A stretch of DNA of 64,000 nt from an uncultured Chloroflexia bacterium (GTDB lineage: Bacteria > Chloroflexota > Limnocylindria > Limnocylindrales > CSP1-4). Below, in pieces: positions 37,045 to 60,942 of the stretch. The notes beneath the pieces were generated by a model that was not told the origin of the DNA, searched no databases, and worked only from the letters and a program-made list of their open reading frames with translations. Position numbers and translations under genes: made by a program. The stretch is taken from NCBI GenBank assembly GCA_963725875.1, contig CAVRZZ010000003.1:731843-795842 (forward strand), read 5' to 3'. Within the stretch, counting starts at the first letter, position 1; the number at the start of each line of letters is the position of its first letter.

Positions 37045-37125
37045 CCGGCTCCGCACCGGACCCACCGCTCCGTTCCGGGGGGCGGGATGGGATGCGCGCC
37101 GGGCGTCCGGGGGCCGTCCTCCTTG
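37045..37125 (+). repeat. copy 1 of a ~80-nt leader repeat (ggctccgcaccgg…ggg(a/g)cgc…ccgg(g/a)ggccgt)
   Basis: Shares its core with copies at 37553, 37893 and 38817. Lies ~55 nt upstream of the gene at 37181. Confidence 0.5.
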
Positions 37126-37180
37126 TGGCCAGGTTCGCTCGCGCCCATGATTGGTGGCCCCTGCAGGAGCGACGAGCACC

Positions 37181-37414
37181 ATGAGCGACGAGCGCACATC
37201 GGCCCCGGAGCCGGCGCCATCCACGGCGGAGAGGCGGTGGCGCCGCGCCAAGCGGACGGCAGTCGATGACTTGAGGAGCCGGGAGGATGAGATGACCGAC
37301 GCCGAGATCATCGAGGCCTTCCGCGAGATCGCGATCCTCCCTCCCGACGAAGGGGAGGAGGAGGACGAGGAAGAGATGAGCGACGAGGCGATCATCAACC
37401 TCGTCCGTGGGTAG
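37181..37414 (+). CDS. small acidic hypothetical protein
   Basis: MSDERTSAPEP…EDEMTDAEIIEAFREIAILPPDEGEEEDEEEMSDEAIINLVRG. Realistic and highly acidic. Confidence 0.4.
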   Translation: MSDERTSAPEPAPSTAERRWRRAKRTAVDDLRSREDEMTDAEIIEAFREIAILPPDEGEEEDEEEMSDEAIINLVRG

Positions 37415-37552
37415 TATCCCGGGGCGCTCCGCTCTCCTCGAAGGAGTGTGGAGCTCAAGGGCCGTGCCGAAGCGCCAGTCGGCGGCATCCCCGTCAACGC
37501 GAGCGCGACCATTGGCCTCTCGGCAAAGCACGCGATCTTCATGAACCTGGCT

Positions 37553-37630
37553 GGCTGCCGCACCGGGCGTTCCGATCTCTTCGGAGGACGGGACGCTCAC
37601 CGGGTGTCCGGAGGCCGTTCGCCTCTCGTG
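37553..37630 (+). repeat. copy 2 of the ~80-nt leader repeat
   Basis: gctgccgcaccgggcgttccgatctcttcggaggacgggacgctcaccgggtgtccggaggccgttcgcctctcg. Lies ~69 nt upstream of the gene at 37699. Confidence 0.5.
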
Positions 37631-37698
37631 AAGCGCGATGCCGGGAGGCGATCATCCGTCGCAATGTCTCCGCCGCTCCCTGGACAGTGAGGCCGACG

Positions 37699-37875
37699 AT
37701 GTTGAACCTTGGTCAGATAGGGCACGCCGTTCTCTATGCCGCCATCCCGATCGTCGTCTGCGCCGGCGCGATCTACGCTCAGCGCCGGCGCCGGCGCCCC
37801 TTCTCGAACGCGATGTGGGCGGTCATCGGCGGTGGCGCGGTCGCGCTGGCGCTGGTTGCCGGTGAGGTGTTCTAA
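37699..37875 (+). CDS. small membrane protein (~58 aa, two hydrophobic segments)
   Basis: MLNLGQIGHAVLYAAIPIVVCAGAIYAQRRRRRPFSNAMWAVIGGGAVALALVAGEVF. Confidence 0.35.
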   Translation: MLNLGQIGHAVLYAAIPIVVCAGAIYAQRRRRRPFSNAMWAVIGGGAVALALVAGEVF

Positions 37876-37892
37876 CTGACCTACGCTAGCCG

Positions 37893-37962
37893 CCGGCTCC
37901 GCACCGGGCCCTCCGCTCTCTTCGTGGGATGGGACGCGCACCGGGTGTCCGGGGGCCGTCCA
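37893..37962 (+). repeat. copy 3 of the ~80-nt leader repeat
   Basis: ccggctccgcaccgggccctccgctctcttcgtgggatgggacgcgcaccgggtgtccgggggccgtcc. Lies ~123 nt upstream of the gene at 38085. Confidence 0.5.
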
Positions 37963-38892: not shown

Positions 38893-39021
38893 ATGCCCGG
38901 TCCCCGCCCACGGTGACCGCCAGCGGGAGGCTCAGGCGCGCGGCCCACACGCCGGCAGCCGGGACCGCGCCGAGCCACTGGGGAGACCGACCCACCTCGG
39001 CCCTTCTGGGGAGGCGCAGTC

Positions 39022-39577
39022 ATGGGTCACATCAGCAGGACGATCCACGTCGAGGCGACGCCGGAGCAGGTGTTCGATCTCTGCACGAACCCCGAGAGGT
39101 TCCAGGAGTGGATGGTGCCGGCGAGCGAAGTGAAGGACATCACGGGCACGCCCGGCACCGTCGGCCTCGGCTGGACCACCGGCTCGACGTTCGCCGGGCG
39201 CAAGATGGAGAACCACATGAGCGTCACCGCGGTCGAGCGGCCGCGGCCTTTCGAGGTGAAGGGCACCGGCGCCTTTGCCGCGACGTTGCGCGGGCGCTTC
39301 GAGCCGGCGGCGGGCGGCACGGAGGTCACCATCGAGAACGAACACGAGATGCCGCTCGGCTTCATCGGTGACGCCGCGAACACGCTCTTCGTCGAGAAGT
39401 CGTTCGCGGTGGGCCCGACCGCGCACGCAGGTCCGCGAGGTGACGCTCGCCGTGCTGGGCCGGATGCTGACCCGCGCCACCGCCTCGGGAACAGAGCCGC
39501 CGGCGGCGGCGAAGGCAGCGAGGACGTCGACCTGGCGGGCGGTTGGCGTCCGCGGCAATCAGGAGCAGCGCAGGTAG
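39022..39577 (+). CDS. SRPBCC-superfamily (Aha1/polyketide-cyclase-like) protein; 3' end possibly frameshifted
   Basis: MGHISRTIHVEATPEQVFDLCTNPERFQEWM… The C-terminus may continue in the frame of ORF 39275..39577 (…VREVTLAVLGRMLTRA…). The opposite strand (39558 down to ~39440) carries a 40-aa fragment of the small LuxR-like family. Confidence 0.55.
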
Positions 39578-39794
39578 CCGTCTCTCATCGAGGGCGGCTC
39601 ACGCTGGGCTCACCCGGCTGCGCGTGATGAGCGCCAAGACCACCGCCGTGACGGCGAGGATCGCGCCGATCTGGTCCGGCGCGAGGTTGAGCCCGAACGC
39701 ACGACCAGGGCGATCAACGCATGGGCGAGGGCGAGCACCATGACCGGTTCGCGACCCCAGATCGTGCCGGGCTGGGTGTCCATGGCTCCTCCGG

Positions 39795-40842: not shown

Positions 40843-42356
40843 ACGAGCCTTCGCGGCTGTCTGACAGGGAGATCACCGACATGCTCCGCCGGCGATCGGC
40901 GCGGCCTGCGCCGGACGGGCTGGCGTCGGCAGTCCTGGAGTCCTTGGCCTCGGAGCGCGCGCGTCACTCCGTTCGGACCGCGGGCCGGCCCGCGAAGCGT
41001 CCGCTGGTGCTCCTCGCGGCCGCCGCCCTGCTGCTCGTCGGCGGCGCGATGGCGGTGGGCTCGGGCCTGGTGCGGCTGCCGTCGGTGGTGCCGCCGGTGC
41101 CGGTGCCTTCGCTGGCCGCCGTTGTCACGGATCCCACGGCCGTCCCAACGGCGATCTCCCCGTCGCCGTCCGCCGCCCCGACCTCGTCCGCCGCCCCGAT
41201 CTCGTCCGCCGTCCCGGCGAGGGCGCCCTCGTGGATCGCCACCGGAAGCATGGTCACCCCGCGCGAGGGACACACGGCCACGCTGCTGCCAGATGGCAAG
41301 GTGCTCGTGGCCGGCGGCCTCAACAGGACGAGCGGTAGGCCCAATGGCTCCACCCTGGATGGCGCCATCCTGGCCTCCGCCGAGCTGTACGACCCGCGCA
41401 GCGGGACCTGGAGTGCGACCGGGACCATGGGCACGGCACGTGAGAATCACACCGCGACCCTGCTGCCCGATGGCAAGGTGCTCGTGGTCGGCGGCTTCAC
41501 CGTGACGAGCGGCAACCCCAATGGCACGACGCTGACCTCCGCCCAGCTGTACGACCCGGCGACCGGGACCTGGAGTGCGACCGGGAGCATGAGCACGGCC
41601 CGTGAGAGCCACAGCGCGACGCTGCTGCCCGATGGCAGGGTGCTCGTCGTCGGCGGCTACACCGTGACGGTGAGCGTCGACGGCGGCTCCACCGTGATGA
41701 CATCCCTGGCCTCGGCGGAACTGTACGACCCGGCCAGCGGGAGGTGGACCGCCACCGGCAAGCTGGTCTACGAAGGGGGAACGGCCACGCTCCTGCCCGA
41801 CGGCAAGGTGCTCGTGGCGGGCGGCAACTGGAGCGGCGGATCGTTCGGAGGCGGTGGGTATTCCCCAGCCACCGCCGAGCTGTACGACCCGGGCAGCGGG
41901 ACCTGGACCGCCACCGGGAACATGGCCGCGGGGCGCTACAGCTCCACGGCCACGCTCCTGCCCGGGCGCAAGGTGCTGGTCGCATGCGGCTGCGACCATG
42001 CCGGCCGTGCCTCCGAGCTGTACGACCCGACAACCGGGTCGTGGACCGCCACCGGGACGATGGTCGCGGATCACTGGAGAGATACCGCCACGATGCTGCC
42101 CGATGGCAAGGTGACGGCCACGTTGTTGGCAGATGGGAAGGTGCTCGTCGCGGGTGGCGGGACGCCGACGCTGCCTGCCGCCGAGCTGTACGACCCGGGC
42201 ACCGGGAGCTGGGCTGCCACTGCCAAGATGCTCGCGGTGCGGGTGGACCAGACAGCCACGCTGCTGCCAGATGGGAAGGTGCTCGTGGCGGGCGGCGAAG
42301 GCCCCAGCGGCACGCTGGCCTCCGCCGAGCTGTACGACCCGGGCACCGGACAGTGA
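40839..42356 (+). CDS. anti-sigma factor with one TM helix and an extracellular Kelch-repeat beta-propeller
   Basis: ATG overlaps the sigma stop (ATGA). TM segment [19 protein letters not shown]. At least 8 Kelch-like repeats (…[39 protein letters not shown]…). Confidence 0.75.
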
Positions 42357-42383
42357 CCCGGCACACATCTGAGGAACGCCCAA

Positions 42384-43531
42384 TGCTCGACCGACGCTTC
42401 GCCGGCATGATCGCGGTAGTTGCGCTTCTCGGGGCTGCCTGCGGCAGCGCGGCCACCGCGCCCGCAACAACGGCGCCGACCGCTTCGCCGACCGCGGCAA
42501 CAACGGCGCCGACCGCTTCGCCGACCGCGGCACCGACGGCCGCTCCGACCGCCACGCCCGCGCCGACCGTGGTGGCCACGCCCGCCCCTACCCGTACAGC
42601 GGCCCCCACACCGGCCGGCAAGCCGACGATCGGCGTTCCCGCCGACGACGGTGCCCGGATCATCGCGGTCGAGGCGAACACCCTCGGCGGTACCGTTCCC
42701 GCCACCCGCATCAAGGACCTCACGATCGACTCGCCGGCCGTCGGCCGCACCGTGCAGGTCCAGCTTCTGATCCCGACCGGGTTCGACGCGCATCCAGAGA
42801 CCCGCTGGCCTGTGCTGTATCTGCTCCCCGGTCAGAGCGGGGGCCACCTGGACTGGACGAACTGGAGTGACGTCGAGAAGGTGACCGCACCGACGGACCT
42901 GCTCGTCGTGATCCCGGATGCGGGTGCGGACGACCCTGGTGGCTCGTCGTACACGGACTGGTGGAACGGGGGCGCCGGCGGCCTGCGGCAGTGGGAGACC
43001 TTCCACCTCGTGGAGCTGCGCCAATTGCTGGAGCGGAACTGGAACGCCGGGGACAAGCGTGCGATCGCCGGGGTGTCTGCCGGCGGCTACGGGGCGATCG
43101 AGTACGCGGCACGACAGCCCGGGTTGTTCCGCTTCGCCGCGTCCTATAGCGGGGTCTCCGACCCCGTCGGCAACGTGGCCTTCTGGAATCCGCCCCGCGA
43201 CGTCTGGGGCGACCCGGTTGCACAGGCCGACATCTGGAAGGCGCACGACCCGCTTCTCAACGCCGAGGCCCTCAAGGGCACCGGGCTGTACGTCGCCTAC
43301 GGCAACGGGAAGCCCGGACCGTTCGACAACGGCCAGCCGTCCGACTTCGACCCGTCGGGCGCCGTGGAACGGGAGGTTGCCCGCCAGAGCGCCGCCCTCG
43401 TGGCACGGCTCCACGAACTGAAGATCCCTGTGACCGTCTACGCCTATGGGAACGGCACCCACTTCGGGCCGTATATCGAGCGCGACTTCGAGCGCTCGCT
43501 CCCGCTCATCCTCAAGGCGCTCGGGGAGTAG
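42384..43531 (+). CDS. lipoprotein esterase (Ag85/esterase-D-type alpha/beta hydrolase)
   Basis: RBS gaggaa. Lipobox LLGAAC. A (TAPTASPTAA)x2 linker encoded by a 30-nt tandem repeat. Esterase motifs PVLYLLPGQSGG and AIAGVSAGGYGA. Confidence 0.8.
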
Positions 43532-43570: not shown

Positions 43571-43885
43571 CTACATCGGGTCCCGTCGATCTACGTCCGG
43601 TTCGGGTCCCAGTAGCCCCACGACCTCGTCAAGCACCTCCCTATTCGTCCATTGGAACCATGCCCTCGGGTTCAGGCAGCCGCGGGGCCAGGTCCACACG
43701 AGCTGCGCCGTCGTCGCCGCCCCCACCTTGGAGCGCGCGTTCGCCAGGTGGTGCTTCACGGTCGCGTGCGACAGGCCGAGTCGGTGGGCGGCCGCCTTCT
43801 CGGACCCAGCCGCGAGGACCGCGGCGACCACGACGACCTCTCGGTCGGTGGCGCGTCCGGCTGGGCGGGACGGCCGTCTGGTCAT
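43571..43885 (-). CDS. small (~104 aa) LuxR/GerE-type HTH regulator, paralogue family member
   Basis: …REVVVVAAVLAAGSEKAAAHRLGLSHATVKHHLANARSKVGAATTAQL. Same architecture as ORF 60148..60462. Confidence 0.6.
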   Translation of the reverse strand: MTRRPSRPAGRATDREVVVVAAVLAAGSEKAAAHRLGLSHATVKHHLANARSKVGAATTAQLVWTWPRGCLNPRAWFQWTNREVLDEVVGLLGPEPDVDRRDPM

Positions 43886-43982
43886 GCGCTCTGGAGCCAG
43901 TAGGAAGGCCCTGGCGGCTCGGCGAGGCGCATCGTGATCGGAAGGTCGTTGGTGGCGGGGCTATCCCGCTCGCCCCGACCAC

Positions 43983-45044
43983 CTAGGCCTGGCCCATGCC
44001 GTTCACCGTCCTCCAGGCACGACCGAACTGAACCGCGCCGCTTCCAGATGCTGTCGAGGAACTGCGCGTCTGGCGCGTCGTGCCGGACAAGTCGGCGTCC
44101 GGCATCCAGCCCGAGCGGCGACTGCAGTCGCCGGGTCTCCGCGCACGTGCGCTCCTGGTCGGCCCACGCTCGTGGTCTGGTCGCGAGGCCAGGATCTCCG
44201 CGCGCGGCAGCATCAATCGGGCTCGAGCGATGCGTTGCTGACGATCCGCCAGCGCGGATTGCGGATGCCGGCCCGGCCGGCCCCCCGGCACGAGCGGCAC
44301 CCAGCGCTCCGGGCGCGCCTCGATCCAACGGTGGAGCGGTGCGGCGATGGCGGGGGCCTCGAGCCACTCCAGCAGGTAGCCGAGCCGCGCGACATCGGCA
44401 ACCGCAGCTTCTGTCGCGAGGACGGGCCGGAAGCGACGCGGGCGGAGCGCCGGCGCAAGGTCGCGCAGGACGCTGACGACGTTCCCCCACCCGCCCGCGC
44501 GGGCGCTGTAGCGGACAAGATCGAGGGCCGTGAGCTCCACCGTCGCGATGCGGTAGCGGCCCGACGGCGCGTTGACCAGCGCGAGGGGCGCCCTCGCGGT
44601 ATCGCGGTTGACGACGAACGCGATCCGACGTCGGCCGACCTCGATCTGCCTGCGCTGGTGCGGCACGACGACCTGCACGACCTTCCCCGCGTGCGGGGAC
44701 GGGCCGTGGTAGGCGGCCGCGGCCAGGAGGCCGACGTAGTACGCGAGCCCGAGGTACTCCATCATCGGGTCGAGGTACAGGCGCCAGGACGGCGCGCCGA
44801 CGCCGCGGTCCTCGAGCGGGACGACGACGTGGAAGCCGCGCACCGGCGTGACGATGAGGCCCGCGGTCGCTGCCCGCGCGAGGGCGGCTGTCGTGCTCGC
44901 TGCGCTGACGGCAGGCTGCTGTCCCCGCGCCTCCACGGTCGTGAAGGTGTACTGCCCACGAGCGGGCAGTCCGAGCAGCCAGGCTCGCAAGTCGCTCATA
45001 TGCTTGATCACACGCTCTTCGTTCGCTTGTGCATATGACCGCAC
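43983..45044 (-). CDS. AbiEi-like (type IV toxin-antitoxin antitoxin / transcriptional regulator) domain protein, apparently without an adjacent AbiEii
   Basis: N-terminal wHTH-like …TFTTVEA…AGLIVTPVRGFHVVVP and a YYVGLLAAAAYHG segment typical of AbiEi. Its first ~20 codons are unusually AT-rich (TAT GCA CAA GCG AAC GAA … AAG CAT). Confidence 0.5.
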   Translation of the reverse strand: MRSYAQANEERVIKHMSDLRAWLLGLPARGQYTFTTVEARGQQPAVSAASTTAALARAATAGLIVTPVRGFHVVVPLEDRGVGAPSWRLYLDPMMEYLGLAYYVGLLAAAAYHGPSPHAGKVVQVVVPHQRRQIEVGRRRIAFVVNRDTARAPLALVNAPSGRYRIATVELTALDLVRYSARAGGWGNVVSVLRDLAPALRPRRFRPVLATEAAVADVARLGYLLEWLEAPAIAAPLHRWIEARPERWVPLVPGGRPGRHPQSALADRQQRIARARLMLPRAEILASRPDHERGPTRSARARRPGDCSRRSGWMPDADLSGTTRQTRSSSTASGSGAVQFGRAWRTVNGMGQA

Positions 45045-45056
45045 CCTCCCCGCGGC

Positions 45057-45375
45057 CTCAGGCAGACGCTGTCGGAGCGCTGTAGGGTTGATCGATGGCC
45101 TAGAATGGCGTTCGCGCTCAGGCAGACGCTGTCCTTGAGCGTGGAACTGAGCGGGAGTAACTCAGCTGGCAGAGTGTCTGCTTCCCAAGCCTGAGCGCCT
45201 CAGCGCTGTGGGCTCCCGTGTGGCGGTACCACCACATCGGCTCAGTTATCCGCTGTAGCTCTCGGGCCCTGCAGGTCGCAGGCGGGGCGCCAACCGGAAC
45301 CTAACAGCCGAGTGGCCCGGCAGCAAGCCCCGACGTGTACACCGGCGTGTAGCGAGCGGCCGTGCCACCCCGATC
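45057..45375 (+). repeat. copy A of a ~330-bp structured repeat element
   Basis: Shares over 85% identity by eye with copies at 52342 and 59075. Contains an internal 17-nt direct repeat ctcaggcagacgctgtc and a tRNA-D-arm-like segment gggagtaactcagctggcagagt. Confidence 0.7.
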
Positions 45376-45486
45376 CTCACGGCAACGCCTGCCCCGGCGG
45401 CAACCTTTGGCTTGAGGTCGAACTCCAGGCGCGGTGCCTGGGCGCTCATGTGGCGTATACGGTATGGCGTGATGTATACTCCACCC

Positions 45487-45699
45487 ATGAAGCGCCTGCA
45501 GATCTACATCGAGGAGGAGCTGGACGACGCCCTGGCTGTTCGAGCGCGTCTGACACACACGTCCAAGGCGGCCCTCATCCGCGAGGCCGTCCGCCGGTCG
45601 ATCGGCGAGCCGGAGCCCACCGTCGATCCGTTCCGCGACTGGATCGGCGGCAGCGACGCCACCCCGGCACCCGTCGACGAGGTCGTCTACGGCTCGTGA
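45487..45699 (+). CDS. vapB: ribbon-helix-helix (CopG/VapB-type) antitoxin
   Basis: MKRLQIYIEEELDDALAVRARLTHTSKAALIREAVRRSIG. Its stop overlaps the vapC GTG. Confidence 0.7.
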   Translation: MKRLQIYIEEELDDALAVRARLTHTSKAALIREAVRRSIGEPEPTVDPFRDWIGGSDATPAPVDEVVYGS

Positions 45700-46097
45700 G
45701 GTTCGTCGATACCTCCTACTGGGTGGCGCTCCGCCTGCGGCGTGATGCCAACCACGGTGTCGCCGTCCGATTGTGGACACCCGGCGCGCCGATCCTGACG
45801 ACGAACCAGGTCGTCGGCGAGACCTGGACGTTCCTGCGCCGTCGCGACGGACACCCATCGGCCGTCGCCTTCCTCGACGCGGTCGAGTCGACCGATTGGC
45901 TCACCCTCGTCCATGTTGACGATGCGATCGAGCGCGAGGCGCGGGCCTGGCTTCGACGCCACGATGAGCGCGTCTACTCGTTCGTCGATGCGACGAGCTT
46001 CGCCGTCATGCGACGAGAGCGCCTCCGGGAGGCGCTGGCGTTCGACGGCGACTTCAGCGCGGCGGGATTCGTCGAGGCGCGACCGGAGACCCGGTGA
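45696..46097 (+). CDS. vapC: PIN-domain ribonuclease toxin
   Basis: VRFVDTSYWVAL… and …SFVDATSFAVMRRERLREALAFDGDFSAAGF carry the PIN acidic residues. Confidence 0.75.
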   Translation: MRFVDTSYWVALRLRRDANHGVAVRLWTPGAPILTTNQVVGETWTFLRRRDGHPSAVAFLDAVESTDWLTLVHVDDAIEREARAWLRRHDERVYSFVDATSFAVMRRERLREALAFDGDFSAAGFVEARPETR

Positions 46098-46194
46098 GAC
46101 AGCGCGTTTCGATGGTCGAGGTCGGCGACACTCGGGTCGACGGCCGCTGCCTGGGTGACGATCTCCCAGAAGTCGGCCGTCCGTTCGTGGACTG

Positions 46195-46670
46195 TGGCTG
46201 ACCCGGGCCGAGAACCTGACCCTGTGCGGGCCGTCGGGGACCGGGAAGACCCACTATCTCGAGGGCCTCGCCGCGGCCGCCATCGACACCGGGCGGCGGG
46301 TTGCCTGGTTCAGCCTCGAATCGCTCACCGCGACGATCTGGCGGGCCAAGGTGGACGGCTCGGTGGGGCGGGTCGTGGCCCGCATCTGCCGCGCCGACCT
46401 CGTGGTCGTCGACGACATCGGGATGCTCCCCGCGGGCGCCGAGGCCGCCGAGGCCTTCTACCGGGTCGACGCCGCGTACGAGCGGCGCAGTGTGGCCGTT
46501 ACAGCTCCAACCTCCACCCGTCGGGCTTCGACACCATCATGCCCAAGACCCTCGCCACGGCCACCGTCGACCGGCTCCTCCACCACGCCCACGTCGTCCT
46601 CACCGAGGGCGCCAGCTACCGCCTCGCCGAGCCGACCGTAGCGAAGGGGGTGATGCCGCTCGCCTGACCC
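46195..46670 (+). mobile_element. IS21-family istB (ATP-binding helper) remnant: N-terminally truncated and frameshifted by a 1-nt deletion, with no istA
   Basis: Walker A (NLTLCGPSGTGKTH) and Walker B (DLVVVDDIGM) through …ERRSVAVT lie in one frame. …SNLHPSGFDTIMPKTLATATVDRLLHHAHVVLTEGASYRLAEP continues in the next frame; acagctcc is where acaagctcc would be expected. Confidence 0.65.
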
Positions 46671-46675
46671 AAACG

Positions 46676-46745
46676 GGAGATCTGCTGTCCGTCGGCGTTG
46701 AGATCACGTGTCCGCGGAGATGGAGATCTGCTGTCCGCCCAGGAG
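46676..46745 (+). repeat. two direct copies of ggagatctgctgtccg (plus a third partial copy) immediately after the istB remnant; candidate IS21-type multiple terminal repeats
   Basis: cgggagatctgctgtccgtcgg and atggagatctgctgtccgccc lie 46 nt apart. Confidence 0.3.
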
Positions 46746-46881
46746 GAAGTCCCGCTGTCCCTTGACACCGGGGTAACGGTGGTTCCGGACGAGTACACAC
46801 GCCGCCGGGAGACCGGTTGATATCCGCGCATAGGGCGGTAGACTCGGGGCGTTGATTTCGTCCCCTGGGGGGTGGAGGACG

Positions 46882-48903
46882 ATGTTCCCTCGTCGACTTC
46901 GGGCATTCGCTCCCGTCGCCCTGGCGCTCGTGGTCGTCGCGTGCAGCCCGGCAGAGTTGGCGGAGCCGTCCCGCGCCGCGCCGGTCACGGACCCGCCCCG
47001 GGTCGCGGAGACCCTGATCGTGGGCATGCACGTTCCGGTGGAGATGGCTCCGGAAGACATCGGCGGGCTCACGCCGACCGAGCTGCCGCTCTCCTCGCTC
47101 CACCCCAACGGCAGCCTGCGGGACAGCGTGCTGCAGCGATTCGTCTACAGCGGCGTCTACCGCCTCGACGAGACGCAGTCCCCGGTGCCGGACCTCGCCG
47201 CCGAGCCGTGTGAGGTGAGAGCGGACCTCCTGGTCGTCACCTGCAGCCTGCGCCCGGCGAGCTTCCACGACGGGACGCCGCTGTCGGCGGACGACGTGGC
47301 ATTCGCGTATCAGCTGGGGTTGAGTGAGGCCTGTCGCAGCCAGACGCTGTGCGTAAACGCGGACGAGGGCCGGCTCGTCGCGGCGACGGCGCTTGACGAG
47401 CGGACCGTTGAGTTCCGCCTGTCCCAGCCCGATCCGGCGTTCATCACGGTGGTCCTGTCATCGAGGCTCATCGAACCGCGCGCACGCGTCGAGCGCGCGT
47501 TCGCCGACTTCGTCGAAGCCTCGCGCGGCGCGGACCCCGCGTCGCTGAAGGCGGTCGCGTCCACTTTGGCCGACGAGCTCCGTCCGGGCCGCCCATCCGA
47601 GTGCCGGGCGCCCGCCGACGCGGTGCTCGTGGAGGCCGAGGGGGCGATCGCCGACATCGGCATGGAGCTTCGCGGGCGCGAGGTGTACATGGCAAGTCCC
47701 GATCCCTGCGCGTACGGCGACAGTCTCGTGCGCGTCCTGACGGACGCCACCGACGCGCTGAGCATGACCGGGATCGATGCGATCGCTGCGTCGTATCGCA
47801 TCCTCGAGCCTCCGCTCATCCCGGTGGGCAGCGGCCCCTGGCGGGTCGTGTCGATCGATGCGGGCGTGAGCATGGAGCTCGAGGCGTTCGGAGCGTTCCA
47901 CGGTGGCGCCCCCGCCACCGCGAGGGTGGAGGTCCGGCTGATCCGGACCATCGCGGAGGCGATCGAGGCAGTCCGCAGCGGCGCCATCCACTGGCTCGTG
48001 CAGCCGTTCTCGACGGAGGAGAACCTCATCGCCGACGGCATCGGCGATGCTCCGGGGGTGGCCTGGGCGGAGTACAACCGCCTCAGCTTCACCGCCCTCC
48101 ACTACAACCTGCGCGACGGCCGCCTCTTCGCCGATCGGAACCTGCGCGCCGCGATCGAGCTCTGCCTGGACAAGGACGAGACAGTGGCAGCAGCAACGGG
48201 CGGCAGGGGCGTCCCGGTCTACTCCCCCATCAGCCCGTCGGTATGGGCGTTCGAGGCCGACCTGCCGCGCCCGGCGCGCGACACCGGCAAGAGCCGGGAG
48301 TTGATCGAGGCGTCCGGCTGGACGCCCGGCGACGACGGCATCTACCGCAAGGGAGACCAGCGGCTGACGGCCGTGGTCCCCGTGCGGGAGGATCGGCCGG
48401 CGAACGTCCGCTTCCTCGAGCTGCTGGCATTCCAGGTCGCCGAGTGCGGCATCGAGATGGTGCCTGAGCCGATAGCAGGGGACGACTTCTTGGCGGCGCT
48501 GGACTGGCCGTACATCCCACCGGGTGGTGACCAGCCATGGGATGCCGTCTTCTCCGGATGGATCACGACTCCAGACCCGGACTTCCTCCCGATCTTCCAC
48601 TCGAGCGTGATCGGGACGCCATTGAATCCCAAGGGCAACAACATGATGGGCTACGCCAGCCCGGAGAGTGACGCACTGCTCGAACAGGGGCGTGCGACCT
48701 ACGATCCGCGCGAGCGAGCGCGGCTCTACCGCCAGCACCAGCAGATTCTCGCCGAGGACCGACCGCTGCTGTTCGCCTGGAGCCCGCGCATCCGCGAAGC
48801 CCGGAGCGACCGCCTGGAGTCGACACGAGGCCAACTCGCGACCGATACGAGCACGTGGTGGTGGCAGCTCGAGAACTTGGTCCTTCGGTCGCCCGAGCCG
48901 TAG
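46882..48903 (+). CDS. ABC transporter substrate-binding lipoprotein, family 5 (peptide/nickel/opine type)
   Basis: Signal peptide plus lipobox (ALALVVVACS). Size and internal motifs are typical of SBP_bac_5. Confidence 0.8.
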   Translation: MFPRRLRAFAPVALALVVVACSPAELAEPSRAAPVTDPPRVAETLIVGMHVPVEMAPEDIGGLTPTELPLSSLHPNGSLRDSVLQRFVYSGVYRLDETQSPVPDLAAEPCEVRADLLVVTCSLRPASFHDGTPLSADDVAFAYQLGLSEACRSQTLCVNADEGRLVAATALDERTVEFRLSQPDPAFITVVLSSRLIEPRARVERAFADFVEASRGADPASLKAVASTLADELRPGRPSECRAPADAVLVEAEGAIADIGMELRGREVYMASPDPCAYGDSLVRVLTDATDALSMTGIDAIAASYRILEPPLIPVGSGPWRVVSIDAGVSMELEAFGAFHGGAPATARVEVRLIRTIAEAIEAVRSGAIHWLVQPFSTEENLIADGIGDAPGVAWAEYNRLSFTALHYNLRDGRLFADRNLRAAIELCLDKDETVAAATGGRGVPVYSPISPSVWAFEADLPRPARDTGKSRELIEASGWTPGDDGIYRKGDQRLTAVVPVREDRPANVRFLELLAFQVAECGIEMVPEPIAGDDFLAALDWPYIPPGGDQPWDAVFSGWITTPDPDFLPIFHSSVIGTPLNPKGNNMMGYASPESDALLEQGRATYDPRERARLYRQHQQILAEDRPLLFAWSPRIREARSDRLESTRGQLATDTSTWWWQLENLVLRSPEP

Positions 48904-48915
48904 CTCGGCGCAGGG

Positions 48916-50109
48916 CTACTGGCGGAGAAAGATCGCGGTCTGGCGCCACCATTCGTACAGTTGCTCCCAGTCGTTGTCGCCGCGCCGCGCCCTGGCCAGG
49001 ATTCGCTCGTCGACATAGGTCCAGACGAGCCACGCGGCGCCCTTCTCCTGGTAGCAGAGCAGGCGTCCGGCGTGAACGTTCCGGACCTCCCAGGGGCCGA
49101 CGGCATGCGGCACGGACTCGCACGAGCCGGCCGATGCACCGGTGCGGGCGACGGCCTCGGCGAGTGCTCCCGCGAGGGAGGCTGACGTCGGGAACTGGTC
49201 GACCCAGACCTCGTCCGCGGCCGCGCTGAGCGGGAGCCGGCAATGCAGGCTCACGGAACCGCCGGCCGATCCATCGGCGGCTGTCGCCGGTAGGCAGTCC
49301 TCCCTGACCGCCGCGGGCAGCCGGGCGCGGAGCGTCGCCTCGTCGGCCGTGAGCAGCGAACTTGGCGAGGCCCCGGTGCCTCCGGAGGGCCGCGGCGTCG
49401 CGCCCGACGGAGCACCCGACGCCGGGGAAGCCGCCGGTCCGCTGGGACCGCCGCCGGGCACTGCGACGAGGAGGGCGGCTCCTCCGATCAGCGCGACCGG
49501 GAGCCCGATGGCGGCCGCCAACACGATGACTCTGCGGGGCCACGATCGCCCGCCGGTTCCGGGTGCGGCGGCACGGGCCGCGGCGGTCGAAGGCAGGACC
49601 CCGTAGACGAGGACGGGCTCGGCGATCCCCTTGAGCCGGCGCCGGCCACGCGGCACGAACCGGACCGCCAGAAACGTACGCGTCAGGCCGCGGACGGTGT
49701 CGCTCACCAGCAGCTCGCCGGGACCCGCCAGCGCGCAGATCCGTGCCGCGATGTTGACCGCACTGCCAACGAATCCCTCGGCGGTGTCCGCGGTCTCGCC
49801 CGCGTGCACTCCGACGCCAACCCGGATCGCAGCTGCCCGGGGTTCATCACCGGCCGCCGCGGCGGCCTCGAGGATCGCGAGGCCACCCTGGACAGCGGCG
49901 CTGGCCGACGAGAACACCACGTAGAAGCTGTCGCCCTCTGTCCGGATCTCGGCACCGCCGAACTGCGCGATGACTTCCCGGACGAGCACGCGGTAGCGCG
50001 CGAGGAGCTCCGCGGCCGCCTGGTCGCCGTGGGATTCGACGAACCGCGTGTAGTCGCGCAGGTCCGCGAACAGGAAGCCCCGGGTCTGACTCGCGGGTAG
50101 CTCGCTCAT
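48916..50109 (-). CDS. class III adenylate/guanylate cyclase with a C-terminal TM segment and extracytoplasmic domain
   Basis: CHD motifs (FLFADLRDYTRF, …EIRTEGDSFYVVF…, GVHAGE…VGSAVNIAARI). ATG overlaps the upstream gene's stop. Confidence 0.8.
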   Translation of the reverse strand: MSELPASQTRGFLFADLRDYTRFVESHGDQAAAELLARYRVLVREVIAQFGGAEIRTEGDSFYVVFSSASAAVQGGLAILEAAAAAGDEPRAAAIRVGVGVHAGETADTAEGFVGSAVNIAARICALAGPGELLVSDTVRGLTRTFLAVRFVPRGRRRLKGIAEPVLVYGVLPSTAAARAAAPGTGGRSWPRRVIVLAAAIGLPVALIGGAALLVAVPGGGPSGPAASPASGAPSGATPRPSGGTGASPSSLLTADEATLRARLPAAVREDCLPATAADGSAGGSVSLHCRLPLSAAADEVWVDQFPTSASLAGALAEAVARTGASAGSCESVPHAVGPWEVRNVHAGRLLCYQEKGAAWLVWTYVDERILARARRGDNDWEQLYEWWRQTAIFLRQ

Positions 50110-50876
50110 CCAGTGAGATCCTGGTTCGATGGCGCCAGGTGGAGGCCCCTCGCCATCGCGTCAGGATGCATGCGCACGGGGCACTTGACCAGAGGTGAAG
50201 GCGCGCCGCACGCGGTAGCCGTCTGCCCACCCGTCGAACCCGGCGTGTCAGCCCTCGGTGCCCTGCTCCGCCTCCCACTCGTCCGGGTCAGCGCGTACTC
50301 GACGTCCCCGTGCTCCTCGCCCTCGACGCGCTCGGGCCAGGGCTGGTGGAAGACCCGCACGCGGCGAAGCCCGGCCTTCTCCATGACGCGCCAGGACGCC
50401 TGGTTCACGACCATTGTCGTGGCATAGACGCGGCTGGCCCCCAGCTCCTCGAAGGCCTTCCGGATCAGCGCCCGGCTCCCCTCGGTCGCGAAGCCTCTCC
50501 CCCAGGCATCCGCGACCAGGCGATAGCCGAGCTCAGGCTCGTCGTCCGGATCGCCCTTCTGCGGGCGGAGGTGGAACCAGCCGCGGAACGCCTCGGTGCC
50601 CTTCTCGATCGCCGCCCAGAAGCCGTAGCCGTCGCCCCTGGCGTAGTAGGCCATCCAGGCAGGCAGGTACTCATCGCGAATCTCGTCGCGTGGCGTCGGG
50701 CGGCCGCCGTTGATGTAGCGCATCACCGCGGGATCGGAGTCCAGCGCGGTCGCAAGGTCGACGTCAGCGGGCGTGAACCGACGCAGGACCAGGCGCTCGG
50801 TCTCGAGATAGACGTGCACCGCGGGGATGGTACCGCCGTCAGGCCGAGGGATCCGCCGATGCTCGAGCGCACGCAA
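50106..50876 (-). CDS. GNAT-family N-acetyltransferase (RimL-like) with a C-terminal extension
   Basis: …LVLRRFTPADVDLATALDSDP…GYRLVADAWGRGFATEGSRALIRKAFEELGASRVYATT… The tail after about aa 200 is low-complexity. Confidence 0.7.
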   Translation of the reverse strand: MRALEHRRIPRPDGGTIPAVHVYLETERLVLRRFTPADVDLATALDSDPAVMRYINGGRPTPRDEIRDEYLPAWMAYYARGDGYGFWAAIEKGTEAFRGWFHLRPQKGDPDDEPELGYRLVADAWGRGFATEGSRALIRKAFEELGASRVYATTMVVNQASWRVMEKAGLRRVRVFHQPWPERVEGEEHGDVEYALTRTSGRRSRAPRADTPGSTGGQTATACGAPSPLVKCPVRMHPDAMARGLHLAPSNQDLTG

Positions 50877-51883: not shown

Positions 51884-52341
51884 CGGTACAGCGGGTCCCC
51901 CATCCTCTGCACGGCGTGTCGCTGCGCTCACCGACCGTCAAGCCGAACAGGCCGAGGACGCTGACATCGCCCGGTGGCCGGACGGCCATGGTCGCCATTG
52001 CGCTTGCTCGGAGTCGACCGCCGGCCAGACGCGGGCCGAGGTGGTCGTCCCGTCGTTCTCGATGCGGATGAACCACGCTGCGGCACCCAAGTGGCCGGGT
52101 GACCGGGGATCTCGGGATCCTCGTGGACCCGTGAAGTCCGGGACCGTCGCCGCGATCCTCAGGCGTGAGTAGGTGATCATCCACACACGGATGAAGTACA
52201 AGGACGCCAGGTCGTCGATCTCGCAGGACCGCCGTTCCATCCCGACTTGCTGCTGAGCCCGTTCTCCCACCGCACGGCGCAGACGTCGTCACGCCCGCCG
52301 GAAAGCGACCGGAAGAGCGCGATCCTGGCCTACCGTCAGGT

Positions 52342-52680
52342 CTCAGGCAGACGCTGTCGGAGCGCTGTAGGGTTCATCGATGGTCTAGAATGGCCTTCGC
52401 GCTCAGGCAGACGCTGTCCCCGAGCGTGACTCCCGAGCGGGAGTAACTCAGCTGGCAGAGTGTCTGCTTCCCAAGCCTGAGCGGCTCAGCGCTGTGGGCT
52501 CCCGTGTGGCGGTTCCGCCAAATCGCCTCAGTTATCCGCTGTAGCTTCCGGCCTCTGGAGGTCGCGGACGGGGCGCCAACCGGAACCTAGCAGCCGATCG
52601 GCCCGGCAGAAATCCCTGATGTGTACACCGGTGTGCAGCGAGCGGCCGTGCCCGATCTATTGCCCTTGTCGAGCAGTCTC
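52342..52680 (+). repeat. copy B of the ~330-bp structured repeat element
   Basis: See copy A. Shares an additional ~35-nt 3' extension with copy C. Confidence 0.7.
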
Positions 52681-53030
52681 CGCAAGGCCAAGTCGTCGCT
52701 CGAGATCATTCCGGGGCCATAGGATCGCCCCGCCGTGGAGCCTCAAACCTCCGCTCCAGGTGATCGTCCTGGCGCTCCCGGTTATCGAGTCGCCAGATAC
52801 CCAGCGACGGCGCACCGCGAACCTCTCGAGCTTGGTCGATGCTTCGACTGCTCGGCGGTGTGGAACAGCCGTTCCCTCGACCCGAATCGTGGTCCCTGGC
52901 CGGCTCGCCGATGCGCTCGCCCGGGTCGCGAAGATCGTCGGCTCGACCGGAGTCGCGACGACGATATCGATGCTGGCCCGCTCGCGGGACGAAGGCGCCG
53001 ATTGCAGCGACCGCTGACGCGTCTGACCCC

Positions 53031-54251
53031 CTACCGCGCGACCCACCGCTCCGCGGGCTCGAGCAGGAACCGCTCGAGCGGGATTCCCTCGCCGCCCACG
53101 AGGAGCGATCGGATCGGGCCGAGCCCAGAGAACGCGGTTGTGAACGCGGCGATCCCCGACAGCGAGGCGCCTGCCCGCCCGCTCTTGACCTCGATCGCGG
53201 CAAGGCCACCGGCTCCCGACAGCACGAAGTCAACCTCGCGTTCCCCGTCACGCCACCACGACAGCTCCAGCTCGCCCGTGGCCGCGGCGTTGGCAAGGTG
53301 CGCGCCGACCGCGGACTCCACCAACCGCCCCCAGGTCTCGCCGTCGGCCCGGGCATCGGCGAACGAGCGGGCGGACTGCGCCGTTGCGAGCGCCGTGTTG
53401 AGGACCTGGAGCTTGGGGCTCGACGCGCGTCGGCGAATGACGTTGCCCGAGAACTTGGGCAGGCCCGTGAGCAGGCCGGCGCCCGCGAGCAGCTCAAGGT
53501 AGTGGGCGAGGGTCGTCGTATTCCCCGCGTCATGGAGCTGGCCGAGCATCTTCGTGTAGCTGAGTTCCTGCCCGCTGTACCGGCAGCCGAGCTCGAACAG
53601 CCGCCGCAGGAGCGCCGGCTTGTCGACCCGCGTCAGCAGCAGCACATCGCGGCTGATGGTGGTCTCGACGAGCGCATCGAGGATGTACCGGCGCCAGCGG
53701 GTCTCGTCACCGATCAGCGTCGCGGCCCCCGGGTAGCCGCCGAAGTAGACGTACTCGTCGAGGGTGGTCCCGAACGCGGCCCGCATCTCCCCGAGCGACC
53801 AGTGCGGGACGCGGATGACCTCGAACCGGCCGGCCACGCTTTCGGTGAGCCCCTGCTCAACGAGCAGGGGTGCCGATCCGAGCAGGACGACCCGGAGCGG
53901 CGAACCCGAGCGCGTGTCCTCGTCCCACAGGCGCTTGACCGACTCCGACCAACCGGCGGCCTTCTGGACCTCATCGATCACGAGGACGGCGCCATCGGGG
54001 CCCGCCTCGAGCCGCGCCGCCTCCCATTGAGCCGCGATCCACTCGGGGCCACGGAGCGCGGGCTCGTCGGCGCTCACGACGCGGACCGGGACCGGCAGGG
54101 CTTCGACCGCCTGGGCGACGAGCGTCGACTTGCCCACCTGCCGTGGCCCTGCGATCACCTGGATGAACCGCCGGGGCTCGGCCAGCCGTCGGGCCAGCTC
54201 GGCGGCCTGTGGTCGGCGATACGGAGATGCGGGATCTGGACTACTCACCAT
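53031..54251 (-). CDS. AAA-superfamily ATPase with DUF4143 (COG1373-type)
   Basis: Walker A (GPRQVGKST) and Walker B (VLVIDEVQ). The C-terminal DUF4143 region resembles restriction-endonuclease-like folds. Confidence 0.8.
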   Translation of the reverse strand: MVSSPDPASPYRRPQAAELARRLAEPRRFIQVIAGPRQVGKSTLVAQAVEALPVPVRVVSADEPALRGPEWIAAQWEAARLEAGPDGAVLVIDEVQKAAGWSESVKRLWDEDTRSGSPLRVVLLGSAPLLVEQGLTESVAGRFEVIRVPHWSLGEMRAAFGTTLDEYVYFGGYPGAATLIGDETRWRRYILDALVETTISRDVLLLTRVDKPALLRRLFELGCRYSGQELSYTKMLGQLHDAGNTTTLAHYLELLAGAGLLTGLPKFSGNVIRRRASSPKLQVLNTALATAQSARSFADARADGETWGRLVESAVGAHLANAAATGELELSWWRDGEREVDFVLSGAGGLAAIEVKSGRAGASLSGIAAFTTAFSGLGPIRSLLVGGEGIPLERFLLEPAERWVAR

Positions 54252-54580
54252 GTTGAGTAGTCTTGCTCAGGATCGTGCGGAGTGCAAGACCCCGCTGCAC
54301 CCACACTCCACGAGCGGCTCGGCACCTGGGCGATCAAATCATGCAGTCGTCGCCAGATCCCGGTGGAGCAGTCGACCCGACGGCCTCCGACCGCGAGCTC
54401 GGGCGTGCCCGGCGTGCGGTTCGGGCTCGCCCGGCCCGCGCGACCCGCGCGATCGTGACCAACGTCTCTGGACGCACCAGCCGGCCAACCCGGAGACTCT
54501 GCCCAGACGTCGCGCCGCGGACCCAGGCCCGCGTCCCAGGATCGGCGCCCGGCGCTGCATGGGAGCCTGGAGGAAGCGCC

Positions 54581-55495
54581 ATGGCTGAGCCGCGGGTCCT
54601 GCTGTGCGGTGCCACAGGCGAGCTGGGAGGCGAGATCGCGAGGCGACTCGCGGCGGCCGGAGTGCCCTTCCGAGCACTCGTGCGGAAGGGGCGGCCGACC
54701 GCGCCGCTCGAGGCGCCGGGCGCCGAAATCGTGCACGGGGACCTCCGCGACGAGGCGTCGCTCGTCCCTGCCGTTCGCGGCGTGACGACGGTCATCAGCA
54801 CGGTCAACACCATGGCCCGGCTGCTGGCCGGCGACCACGACCTCAGCATTCGCGACGTCGACGATCGCGGCTACGCGCACTTGATCGCGGCCTGCGAGAA
54901 GGCTGCCGTGCAGCGCTTCGTCTTCGCCACTGCGCTGGGGGACCTCGCGGCGGTGCACACGCCGTTCACCGACGCCAAGGTTGCGACCGAGGCCAGGCTT
55001 CGCGCTTCCTCCATGGGCGAGGTGATCGTCCGCAGCGACATGTTCCAGGAGGCCTGGTTCACGCCCACCGTCGGCTTCGACTGGACGCACGGCAAGGTGA
55101 CCGTGTACGGCAAGGGTGCGACGCGCCACGCGTACGTGGCCATCGCCGACGTGGCCGAGGCGATGGTCCGCCTGGCGCTGACCCCGGACCCGCCTCGCGA
55201 GGTCGAGATCGCGGGTCCTGAAGCGATCTCCCGGACGGAGGCCGTCGAGGCGTTCGAGAAGGCCCTCGGGCGGCCCATCCGCACGCGCCATGTGCCCCGG
55301 ATCGCGATGCGCCTCGGCAGCGTTCTCATGCGCCGGCCGCGTCCGGCCCTGGCCTCGGTCATGGGCATGGCCCTCTTCGACGACCTCACCGAGACGAAGG
55401 TCCGCGACGATGCCCTTCGCGCTCTCGGGATCACCGCGCGGCCGGTCGGGGCGTACATCGCCGACGTCGCCGGCAGGCAGGCCGCGGCAGGGTAG
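54581..55495 (+). CDS. NmrA-like / atypical SDR NAD(P)-binding protein
   Basis: MAEPRVLLCGATGELGGEIARRLAAAG… Rossmann fold with no catalytic Tyr-Lys pair visible. Confidence 0.75.
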   Translation: MAEPRVLLCGATGELGGEIARRLAAAGVPFRALVRKGRPTAPLEAPGAEIVHGDLRDEASLVPAVRGVTTVISTVNTMARLLAGDHDLSIRDVDDRGYAHLIAACEKAAVQRFVFATALGDLAAVHTPFTDAKVATEARLRASSMGEVIVRSDMFQEAWFTPTVGFDWTHGKVTVYGKGATRHAYVAIADVAEAMVRLALTPDPPREVEIAGPEAISRTEAVEAFEKALGRPIRTRHVPRIAMRLGSVLMRRPRPALASVMGMALFDDLTETKVRDDALRALGITARPVGAYIADVAGRQAAAG

Positions 55496-55679
55496 TGCCC
55501 GCCTGAGGGCGGCGACCCGCTTCGGACCAGCGGGAACCGGGACGATGGACCTTCCGGGGGAGCCCGCGCTCGAGCATCGCAGTGAGGCAGCGAGCCCATG
55601 ACGCCGGGTGCCTGCACGGGCTGTGGCGCAGACCTCGAGCATTCCGCTTTGTCCCTTTTCGCAACGCCGCCCCGCCCGT

Positions 55680-58883: not shown

Positions 58884-59074
58884 CGATCGGAGACCGGGTG
58901 GCCCCAGACGGAATCGTCGGCGGCCCATTCCGCGCCTCCCCGGTTCCCGTCGGTCGGGTCGCGCTCCCGGCCGGCTGGACTCCAGCAGCGGGCGCCTCGC
59001 CGGTGCAGACAAGGTCCCGATGCAGTCATGCGATCACGCTGTCCCCGAAGCGGCGGATCCGGGAGATCGTCGTC

Positions 59075-59415
59075 AAGCAGACGCTGTCGGAGCGCTGTAG
59101 GGTTGATCGATGGCCTAGAATGGCCTTCGCGCTCAGGCAGACGCTGTCCTCGAGCGTGACTCCCGAGCGGGAGTAACTCAGCTGGCAGAGTGTCTGCTTC
59201 CCAAGCCTGAGCGGCTCAGCGCTGTGGGCTCCCGTGTGGCGGTTCCGCCAAATCGCCTCAGTTATCCGCTGTAGCTTCCGGCCTCTGGAGGTCGCGGACG
59301 GGGCGCCAACCGGAACCTAGCAGCCGATCGGCCCGGCAGAAATCCCTGATGTGTACACCGGTGTGCAGCGTGCGGCCGTGTCCCGAGCTTCTCGCTCTCG
59401 TCGAGCGGTCGCCCT
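59075..59415 (+). repeat. copy C of the ~330-bp structured repeat element
   Basis: See copy A. Its first internal direct repeat is caagcagacgctgtc (a-for-g variant). Confidence 0.7.
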
Positions 59416-60209: not shown

Positions 60210-60462
60210 TCCGCTGACCCGGCTCGAGGCTCGGCACCACCAGCCACCCCTCCGCTCGCCCCCGATAGTTCAGCTGCTCAGTGGTGAGGCCGGAGCGTGC
60301 CCGCAGGTCCGCCAGATGGCGCTTCGCAGTGCTCGGCCGGATGCCCACGACCTCGGCCGCGTCAGCAACGGAACCTCCAGCAGCTACGAACCCTGCGACG
60401 ACGTCGACCTGGCGTACGGTCGGCGCCCGCGGGAGCGAGCCTCGCAGATACCCGTCTCTCAT
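60148..60462 (-). CDS. small (~104 aa) LuxR/GerE-type HTH regulator, paralogue family member (intact)
   Basis: …TVRQVDVVAGFVAAGGSVADAAEVVGIRPSTAKRHLADLRARSGLTTEQL. Confidence 0.6.
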   Translation of the reverse strand: MRDGYLRGSLPRAPTVRQVDVVAGFVAAGGSVADAAEVVGIRPSTAKRHLADLRARSGLTTEQLNYRGRAEGWLVVPSLEPGQRIRTVPQARGRCEGVMSTRPG

Positions 60463-60939: not shown

Positions 60940-60942
60940 AGG

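Follow-up and report, generated by a model that had tools for sequence, protein, structure and literature searches.

Tandem genomic islands anchored on transfer RNA (tRNA) or tmRNA genes are represented by the arrays of the Islander catalogue, by ICESt1/CIME and, among the Chloroflexota, by the ssrA islands of Dehalococcoides (PMC3146451). In these systems segments are bounded by a tRNA or tmRNA gene (tDNA) and by co-oriented fragments of it, close relatives differ by whole units, and the cargo comprises accessory, defence and toxin-antitoxin genes; all these traits are shared by the locus described here. Islands that leave a 5' fragment of the target gene account for 159 of the 3919 islands in Islander (~4%), this class requires that the fragments lie upstream of the intact gene, and arrays with at least three members number only four (PMC4383910). 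The locus was found in a 64-kb stretch of DNA (hereafter, the window; ~70% G+C) from an uncultured Chloroflexia bacterium, where the feature under study spans positions 43571-46767 and contains a small LuxR-type regulator gene, remains of an AbiE toxin-antitoxin pair, one copy of a ~320-nt repeat, a vapBC toxin-antitoxin pair and the tail of an IS21-family insertion sequence (IS). Related loci were compared from four metagenome-assembled genomes (MAGs, MFD series) of uncultured Chloroflexia bacteria, namely CAWDEW, CAWHRD, CAVZLW and CAVZLU.

In this high-GC member of the Chloroflexota, a plastic region derived from islands is probably anchored on a tRNA-Gly(CCC) gene; the feature would comprise two adjacent pieces of it, with borders marked by the repeat units. 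Judged from sequence comparison, the LuxR-type and AbiEi genes appear to form the upstream side of a tRNA-fragment junction, and vapBC together with the IS21 remnant appear to open the next segment. As in the Islander 5'-fragment class, the displaced fragments lie upstream of the intact gene, and in the same orientation, in the relatives. The window differs from the tandem islands named above in that a 5' half has been displaced together with its promoter and in that the unit is long (~320 nt); moreover, the arrays comprise 3 to 5 or more units, compared with the mere four arrays of three or more listed in Islander. The tRNA-fragment array is a fresh example of a known but uncommon configuration.

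The ~320-nt repeat and the front half of tRNA-Gly(CCC)

The window holds three copies of the repeat, all on the plus strand. Copy A (45057-45377) is made up of a left part (45057-45190) and a right part, or arm (45191-45377), while copies B (52343-52665) and C (59073-59392) carry the tRNA-Gly 5' fragment at 52437-52476 and 59167-59206, respectively, each followed by the arm; copy B closes the segment that begins after copy A. Copies C and B are ~96% identical over a 342-nt blastn alignment, and 98% identical in an ungapped stretch of 300 nt.

The left part of copy A (134 nt) comprises the upstream/promoter region of a tRNA-Gly(CCC) gene plus nucleotides 1-40 of the tRNA (45151-45190), with the tRNA sequence breaking off immediately after the anticodon loop, within the 3' strand of the anticodon stem. 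The 40-nt fragment is 100% identical to the corresponding nucleotides of two intact tRNA-Gly(CCC) genes from the relatives (L020, 7491-7566, and L025, 7731-7806), and the whole 134 nt are 93-95% identical to the regions upstream of these two genes plus nucleotides 1-40. In the left part, CTCAGGCAGACGCTGTC occurs as two boxes at a distance of 60 nt and a TAGAAT motif is conserved, and the repeat unit contains five CGCTGT-type boxes. The arm (~185 nt) is non-tRNA sequence standing in place of the tRNA 3' half, and opens with an imperfect palindrome over the junction. In an alignment of 17 copies, taken from five genomes and from metagenomes, the first ~85 nt of the arm were conserved in every copy, after which two types could be distinguished. 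On these comparisons, the repeat is best described as the displaced front half of a tRNA-Gly gene, promoter included, fused to a conserved arm.

The initial annotation had marked copy A as a structured repeat. Its repeated nature was borne out, as a ~320-nt unit present three times, but it is a tRNA-Gly 5'-fragment unit and not a structured RNA. No tRNA was called in the repeat by ARAGORN, and Rfam searches, both at the gathering threshold (GA) and at E<=10, returned no family and only a tRNA match of 21 bits, below the GA of 29. The predicted fold was no more stable than that of shuffled sequences on either strand (z = -0.26 and -0.11), and RNAalifold on the 17 copies gave a covariation term of -1.08 kcal/mol, most pairs being invariant. 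A structured RNA was rejected on the Rfam results, the fold z-scores and the near absence of covariation. In its broader form, this reading would take the repeat as a tRNA-derived structured small RNA gene, or as a cis-regulatory leader served by the retained promoter, with copy A driving or regulating vapBC; the unit would then be maintained by selection instead of being a scar of recombination. The near invariance of the TAGAAT box, of tRNA nucleotides 1-40 and of the first ~85 nt of the arm in the 17 copies speaks for it, as do a promoter oriented towards vapBC and a 12-bp hairpin across the junction. We nevertheless regard it as unlikely, given that besides the fold, covariation and Rfam results the genes located 3' of the copies are unrelated and often lie on the opposite strand, and that the copies bound an indel between genomes.

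Two further identities were tried and rejected. A tRNA gene with an intron or a small insertion was discarded, as no 3' half was found in the window (up to 3 mismatches; blastn-short). A phage or plasmid attachment site (attP) was discarded as well, since the junction and arm patterns were absent from IMG/VR and the repeat remained unmatched in phage and plasmid collections. The pattern CAGACGCTGTC-N49-CAGACGCTGTC matched 13 viral contigs, but in the form of 12-nt tandem repeats unrelated to the element. The sole viral match to the repeat (L001) has only the tRNA 5' half in common with it, beside a tyrosine integrase. In this phage-like contig (IMGVR_UViG_3300025739_000069), positions 741-815 hold a tRNA-Gly(CCC)-like sequence with a 5' half identical to the window fragment, a defective T-arm and no ARAGORN call, followed by the tyrosine integrase gene at 1312-2448; the arrangement resembles the usual 3' type of integration, with this same tRNA as the target in a related host.

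Sequences resembling the arm were also noted away from the arrays. The distal arm (window 59290-59392) has a 94-103-nt match (89-93% identity) at positions 338-440 of L015, a relative with ~75% identity, where it is intergenic, ~9.5 kb upstream of a gene pair for a substrate-binding protein (SBP) and a cyclase, with no tRNA fragment beside it. In L045 (Ga0209540_10018465, an unrelated soil metagenome contig), a repeat copy has another PIN-domain open reading frame (ORF; 844-1440) as the immediate neighbour of its arm.

Gain and loss of segments between repeat copies

In order to survey the genomes, a 20-mer spanning the junction between the tRNA-like and the non-tRNA sequence was scanned, and extra partial copies were added by blastn. 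Apart from the window genome, the unit was found only in the four related MAGs (4 copies in CAWDEW, 5 in CAWHRD, 3 in CAVZLW and 2 in CAVZLU) and also in nine short soil metagenome contigs. The copies were clustered and co-oriented in all five genomes, and in two of the relatives an intact tRNA-Gly(CCC) gene was located downstream of them (CAWHRD, L029 and L020; CAVZLU, L025).

The clearest difference by a whole unit was seen in CAVZLW, where the order is abiEii-abiEi, a single repeat, and then DNA 91.5% identical to window positions 52329-56665. The segment 45378-52342, which in the window holds vapBC, the IS21 remnant, and genes for the SBP, a cyclase, a GNAT protein and a lipoprotein, is missing there as a unit. 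Because CAVZLW joins the abiEi-repeat stretch straight to the DNA that follows copy B, the 7.3 kb comprising the DNA between copies A and B plus one repeat is an indel bounded by these repeats. At sites distinguishing copy A from copy B, the single repeat of this CAVZLW locus resembles A on its left (45090, 45099) and mostly B from 45110 onwards, a switch of the kind expected for recombination inside the unit. A second difference involves CAWHRD, in which the unit homologous to the segment between copies B and C (a DUF4143 ATPase and a large cyclase/AAA regulator) is the last before the intact tRNA, unlike in the window, where the same segment is followed by copy C and more DNA. In two more distant relatives (~75% identity; L015 and L016) only the SBP and cyclase genes (46822-50135) are held in common with the window, among other neighbours.

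The AAA_14/DUF4143 ATPase gene of the window (53031-54251, minus strand) lies ~370 nt to the right of copy B and matches the PADLOC candidate defence model PDC-S01 (E 1e-170); its orthologues likewise follow a repeat copy in CAVZLW and CAWHRD.

The possibility that the repeat is instead a non-autonomous transposable element, resembling a miniature inverted-repeat transposable element (MITE), which captured part of a tRNA and moved to new sites, was weighed against these distributions. It would account for the multiple copies and for the sharp left border at CTCAGGCAGACGCTGTC, and transposase genes of the IS110, IS630 and IS481-like (rve-type) groups, identified by eye from translations, adjoin some copies in the relatives. 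The copies, however, are devoid of terminal inverted repeats and target-site duplications; each genome has them only in a single co-oriented cluster, located upstream of the intact tRNA to which they correspond, and their left part runs co-linear with the sequence that natively precedes this tRNA. This origin is therefore very improbable, and the tRNA-anchored array is the reading followed below.

Genes on either side of the copy A junction

The 43.5-46.8 kb interval, flanked by an esterase gene (ending at 43531) and by an SBP_bac_5 gene (from 46882), is an ordinary patchwork in which a broken AbiE pair and an intact VapBC pair are accompanied by the end of a dead IS21 element. There is nothing surprising in the toxin-antitoxin and IS pieces themselves. 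Function has probably been retained by vapBC and the LuxR-type gene alone, perhaps joined by abiEi as an orphan repressor. The initial annotation had described the interval as a mosaic of toxin-antitoxin and mobile-element pieces, several of them decayed, and this description holds, the decay consisting of an abiEii deletion, an abiEi frameshift and an IS21 remnant.

The leftmost gene (43571-43885, minus strand; 104 aa as read) encodes the small LuxR regulator that had been proposed, with a GerE/LuxR-type helix-turn-helix (HTH) domain at residues 13-63 (Pfam PF00196, E 1.7e-6) that scores above the gathering cutoff (28 bits vs 23.5). No receiver or ligand domain was found in the protein by Pfam scan. 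Positions 43664-43981, which take in the gene core and ~100 nt of upstream DNA, show 84% identity with a gene of CAVZLU (L025, 5062-5382) located between a repeat copy and the intact tRNA. With respect to that homologue the tail is altered by a 1-nt indel after 'AQLVW', the HTH core being intact; read in the CAVZLU frame, the protein would end at 43641. A small HTH paralogue of this gene, with weak Pfam matches below gathering scores, was detected at 60148-60462 (minus strand), with copy C ~750 nt to its left, and 109 nt inside the paralogue (60324-60432) are 74% identical to a DNA repeat at 39447-39555.

Between the LuxR-type gene and the AbiE remains lies a stretch of junction DNA (43886-44151), the part of it up to 43981 being common to CAVZLU. 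Homology to CAVZLU ends at 43981 and homology to CAVZLW at ~44152, and the sequence in between (43982-44151) has no match in any related locus. On this evidence, 43886-44151 would be the mark of a rearrangement or deletion that took out abiEii and by which the LuxR-type HTH gene may have become joined to the remains of a type IV AbiE toxin-antitoxin system.

An AbiEi-like gene had been assigned to an ORF at 43983-45044 (minus strand), and an AbiEi homologue is indeed present there (PF09407, E 4e-29). The 353-aa ORF as such was rejected as an artefact, being pieced together from untranslated leader sequence, the frameshifted abiEi and the stub of abiEii. The region is ~90% identical (blastn) to the CAVZLW locus, where abiEi and the repeat are conserved, and comparison with it places the abiEi antitoxin/regulator gene, carrying a +1 frameshift, at 44213-44999 (minus strand). 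The frameshift corresponds to a run of six C at 44280-44285 (plus strand) vs five in CAVZLW, 24 codons before the true stop at 44213. After removal of one base, the gene gives a 261-aa product of which residues 4-261 match the PADLOC AbiEi models (E 1e-64) and which matches Pfam AbiEi_1 (PF09407, E 3e-29), so that both the N-terminal HTH part and the C-terminal AbiEi_1 domain are covered. abiEi is either a pseudogene or the product of a homopolymer assembly error. The run of A/T-ending codons at its 5' end, previously regarded as foreign, does not belong to the gene: the start was mis-called, and the first 15 'codons' (45000-45044) are non-coding. Their GC content at third positions (GC3) is 0.53, compared with 0.90 for the abiEi gene, and since in the CAVZLW orthologue a stop codon interrupts the stretch that precedes the ATG (44999), these 15 'codons' are read as an untranslated leader. 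The 5' untranslated/promoter region as a whole (45000-45056, minus strand) is non-coding, yet a GTG at 45011 could add four codons.

The absence of an AbiEii partner was confirmed throughout the window, and a deletion explains it. CAVZLW has a full AbiEii gene (Pfam PF08843, E 5e-13; PADLOC AbiEii, E 3e-46), and its start overlaps the stop of abiEi. In the window, the homology to CAVZLW is lost after ~60 nt, at ~44152, leaving a stub of ~20 codons (44152-44213, minus strand; MLPRAEILASRPDHE...) with a start that overlaps the abiEi stop. The comparison indicates that the abiEii toxin gene was deleted except for these ~20 codons. Owing to the abiEi frameshift, the Arg-rich C-terminus of the 353-aa ORF is an out-of-frame read-through over the stub into unrelated DNA. 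The locus resembles known AbiE (AbiEi/AbiEii; type IV, abortive-infection) systems in the full-length AbiEi obtained after the 1-nt repair and in the abiEii overlap preserved in CAVZLW. It differs from them in that the toxin is cut to ~20 codons and the antitoxin frame is broken near its 3' end, so that it represents a remnant and not a system. With the AbiEii nucleotidyltransferase toxin reduced to this extent, the remnant should no longer be able to work as a toxin-antitoxin pair.

To the right of copy A, the vapBC pair was found intact and coupled by GTGA, as first described. vapB (45487-45699, plus strand; 70 aa) encodes a ribbon-helix-helix (RHH) antitoxin (Pfam RHH_1, E 7e-7), for which relatives in L032, L034 and L035 are called with 75 aa, from a GTG equivalent to 45472; an exact-sequence look-up of VapB itself gave no match. 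vapC (45696-46097, plus strand; 133 aa) encodes a PIN-domain toxin (Pfam PIN, PF01850, E 1.2e-13) matching profile positions 2-119 of 120 and bearing the acidic quartet D5, E42, D98 and D117; its GTG start overlaps the vapB stop as GTGA (45696-45699). An 11-nt inverted repeat on the plus strand, GTGGCGTATAC (45450-45460) and GTATACTCCAC (45474-45484), which closely precedes the vapB start or overlaps it, is a possible VapB operator. The pair follows type II VapBC systems in gene order, 4-nt overlap, sizes (70-75 and 133 aa), RHH and PIN domains, the four acidic residues and the inverted repeat at the promoter, as well as in the many paralogous or xenologous copies in varied contexts, and no structural difference from the family was found.

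DNA similarity to other copies of vapBC spans only 45451-46095 (645 nt), with the inverted repeat mostly included. The module recurs at ~86% nucleotide identity in three unrelated gene neighbourhoods on longer contigs (L032, L034 and L035), and VapC homologues numbered 6734 at E<=1e-10, the best being 93% identical and many lying on contigs of ~1.3-1.5 kb. Such a distribution suggests that vapBC behaves as a compact, often relocated two-gene module of a very large soil family. By analogy with the VapBC family, VapB is likely to act at the inverted repeat 45450-45484 as repressor of its own promoter and to counteract the PIN ribonuclease; loss of VapB would then lead to VapC-mediated growth arrest, which may stabilise the segment against deletion.

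Downstream of vapBC, the truncated and frameshifted IS21 istB that had been predicted was recognized as a fragment in two frames. The remnant (46190-46667, plus strand) corresponds to residues ~100-256 of the 256-aa IS21 helper ATPase and retains the Walker A motif (GPSGTGKT). Pfam IstB_IS21 matches occur in two frames over 46155-46667, and tblastn with a Rhodococcus IstB likewise gave two frames (E 1e-61), with similarity from residue ~100 (of 256) onwards. The fragment lacks one codon and shifts frame at ~46510; joining the two frames gives 149 aa that share 75% identity with the IstB of Rhodococcus plasmids. The remnant is followed by the right end of the element (46668-46767, plus strand), with three 16-nt subterminal repeats and a terminus in ...CTGTCCCTTGACA. 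GGAGATCTGCTGTCCG is present as exact copies at 46676 and 46722 and as a degenerate third at 46699, at a spacing of 23 nt, and the terminus CGCTGTCCCTTGACA ends at 46767, its last letters being ...CTTGACA. In a complete Rhodococcus IS21-like element (L031), three GAGATCNNCTGNCCG repeats and then the terminus CCTGTCCCTTGACA are found downstream of istB, that is, the repeat order and the terminal CTGTCCCTTGACA are the same in both. Because of this shared order, the direct repeats can be identified as the subterminal repeats of an IS21 right end; their earlier tentative assignment to an IS end was correct, except that the end lies at 46767 and not at 46750.

No istA-like ORF was found upstream of the istB remnant, the place being occupied by vapBC. 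The left end and the first ~100 istB codons are also absent, only the last ~580 nt of the element being left, and since istA and these codons are gone the remnant is immobile. It conforms to the IS21 family in the C-terminal 157 residues of istB and in a terminal end with multiple subterminal repeats ending in CA; it differs in having neither istA, nor the first ~100 codons of istB, nor a left end, and in the istB codon deletion and frameshift, and it is dead.

The proposal that the whole 43.5-46.8 kb block is a single horizontally acquired defence or addiction island, of foreign composition and since decayed, was examined on the basis of codon usage and of the related loci. Background genes of the window had a GC3 of 0.904±0.033 and a codon adaptation index (CAI) of 0.719±0.064. 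The values for the islet genes were 0.90 and 0.71 for abiEi, 0.89 and 0.76 for vapB, 0.84 and 0.65 for vapC, 0.92 and 0.71 for istB frame 1, and 0.96 and 0.86 for istB frame 0 (GC3 and CAI, respectively). vapC was ~2 standard deviations low on GC3 and within ~1 standard deviation on CAI. The islet genes show no compositional sign of recent foreign origin, their codon usage being host-like or nearly so. Foreign composition, part of the initial annotation, was ruled out by GC3 and CAI, as values were in or near the host range and the anomaly was limited to the non-coding 45 nt.

The clustering of toxin-antitoxin genes with an IS fragment, a slight dip in GC to 0.64-0.69 over 44.9-46.1 kb, and the absence of a DNA match for vapBC and the IS remnant in the related loci would favour a single island; moreover, the block as a whole is not syntenic in the relatives, as had been anticipated. 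However, the GC3 and CAI values of abiEi, vapB and istB coincide with those of the host background, vapC falling just slightly below; the AT-rich stretch does not code for protein, and the tDNA-fragment junction splits the block. In addition, abiEi and the repeat are kept in CAVZLW, whereas vapBC and the IS21 remnant fall in the other, 7.3-kb indel unit together with housekeeping-type genes. A single acquired island is thus largely refuted and has little probability left: its mosaic and decayed character stands, but the block is split by the tRNA-Gly-fragment junction and its codons are host-like.

Other features were recorded around the interval. More distant homologues of the SBP gene (46882-48903) are named from Chloroflexota and Candidatus Limnocylindria MAGs. 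To the left, a Kelch-repeat protein gene (41232-42364, plus strand) consists of ~7 tandem units of ~160 nt, and the esterase gene beside it bears a perfect 33-nt tandem duplication (42464-42529) in an Ala/Pro/Thr-rich linker. Further upstream, a G+C-rich direct repeat of 36-61 nt (GGGATGGGAYGCGCRCCGGGYGTCCGGGGGCCGTCC) occurs three times within 37084-37961 at a spacing of 341-501 nt. A c-di-GMP-II-GAG riboswitch aptamer (38917-39000, plus strand; Rfam RF03169, 44.7 bits vs a GA of 40) forms the start of an ORF region (38917-39627) with a product carrying a Polyketide_cyc2/SRPBCC domain. At the right edge, an ORF of >1087 aa (60736-63999, plus strand; GC3 0.91) extends past the end of the window; neither Pfam nor PADLOC gave a match for it.

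Proposed build-up of the array and its meaning for the lineage

The repeat units would separate successive segments, in one orientation, upstream of the intact tRNA. They may be the remains of circular DNAs with the same unit that inserted one after another at the tRNA, either through a site-specific recombinase acting in trans or through Campbell-type homologous recombination across the 320-nt unit.

Several observations weigh against this picture. The intact tRNA-Gly(CCC) gene of the window genome is not inside the window and, on the array model, would lie beyond position 64000. The segments hold mostly ordinary metabolic and regulatory genes, and the SBP-cyclase pair is found in other contexts in the ~75% relatives. 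The insertion mechanism proposed above faces the result that no recombinase was found in the units examined: tblastn searches with a phage tyrosine integrase, XerC and the gamma-delta resolvase failed to detect any recombinase of the tyrosine or serine type, either in the 64-kb window or in the related arrays (~88 kb), within the limited sensitivity of BLAST, the same queries had no match in the metagenome contigs, and Pfam scans of neighbouring ORFs yielded no recombinase either. As regards decay, MAG assembly errors could account both for the abiEi frameshift and for the 1-nt indel that alters the LuxR tail, and the activity and autoregulation of VapBC are attributed from family membership only.

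Because no unit examined has a recombinase, the units resemble integrase-less cis-mobilizable elements, or the outcome of Campbell-type exchange; an Islander-type search would reject them, since none of those examined has an integrase. A bolder and rather doubtful suggestion is that the ~320-nt unit serves as the recombination site of a cassette-like system, in which a recombinase encoded elsewhere, or homologous recombination, would shuffle multi-gene segments upstream of tRNA-Gly(CCC), and in which the retained tRNA promoter would drive the first genes of a segment, such as vapBC. If so, the segments shuffled in this uncultured Chloroflexota lineage would carry defence, toxin-antitoxin, regulatory and metabolic genes.

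For annotation, these results mean that the 353-aa 'AbiEi' is a chimera, that the direct repeats are IS21 subterminal repeats, and that the 'structured repeat' is a tRNA-Gly 5' fragment and not an RNA gene. For the biology of this poorly known soil Chloroflexota lineage, they point to a tRNA-anchored hot-spot of gene flux that uses the less common 5' tDNA fragment and is devoid of integrases in the units examined, and they illustrate how toxin-antitoxin modules and candidate defence genes (AbiE, VapBC and the PADLOC PDC-S01 ATPase) accumulate and decay there.

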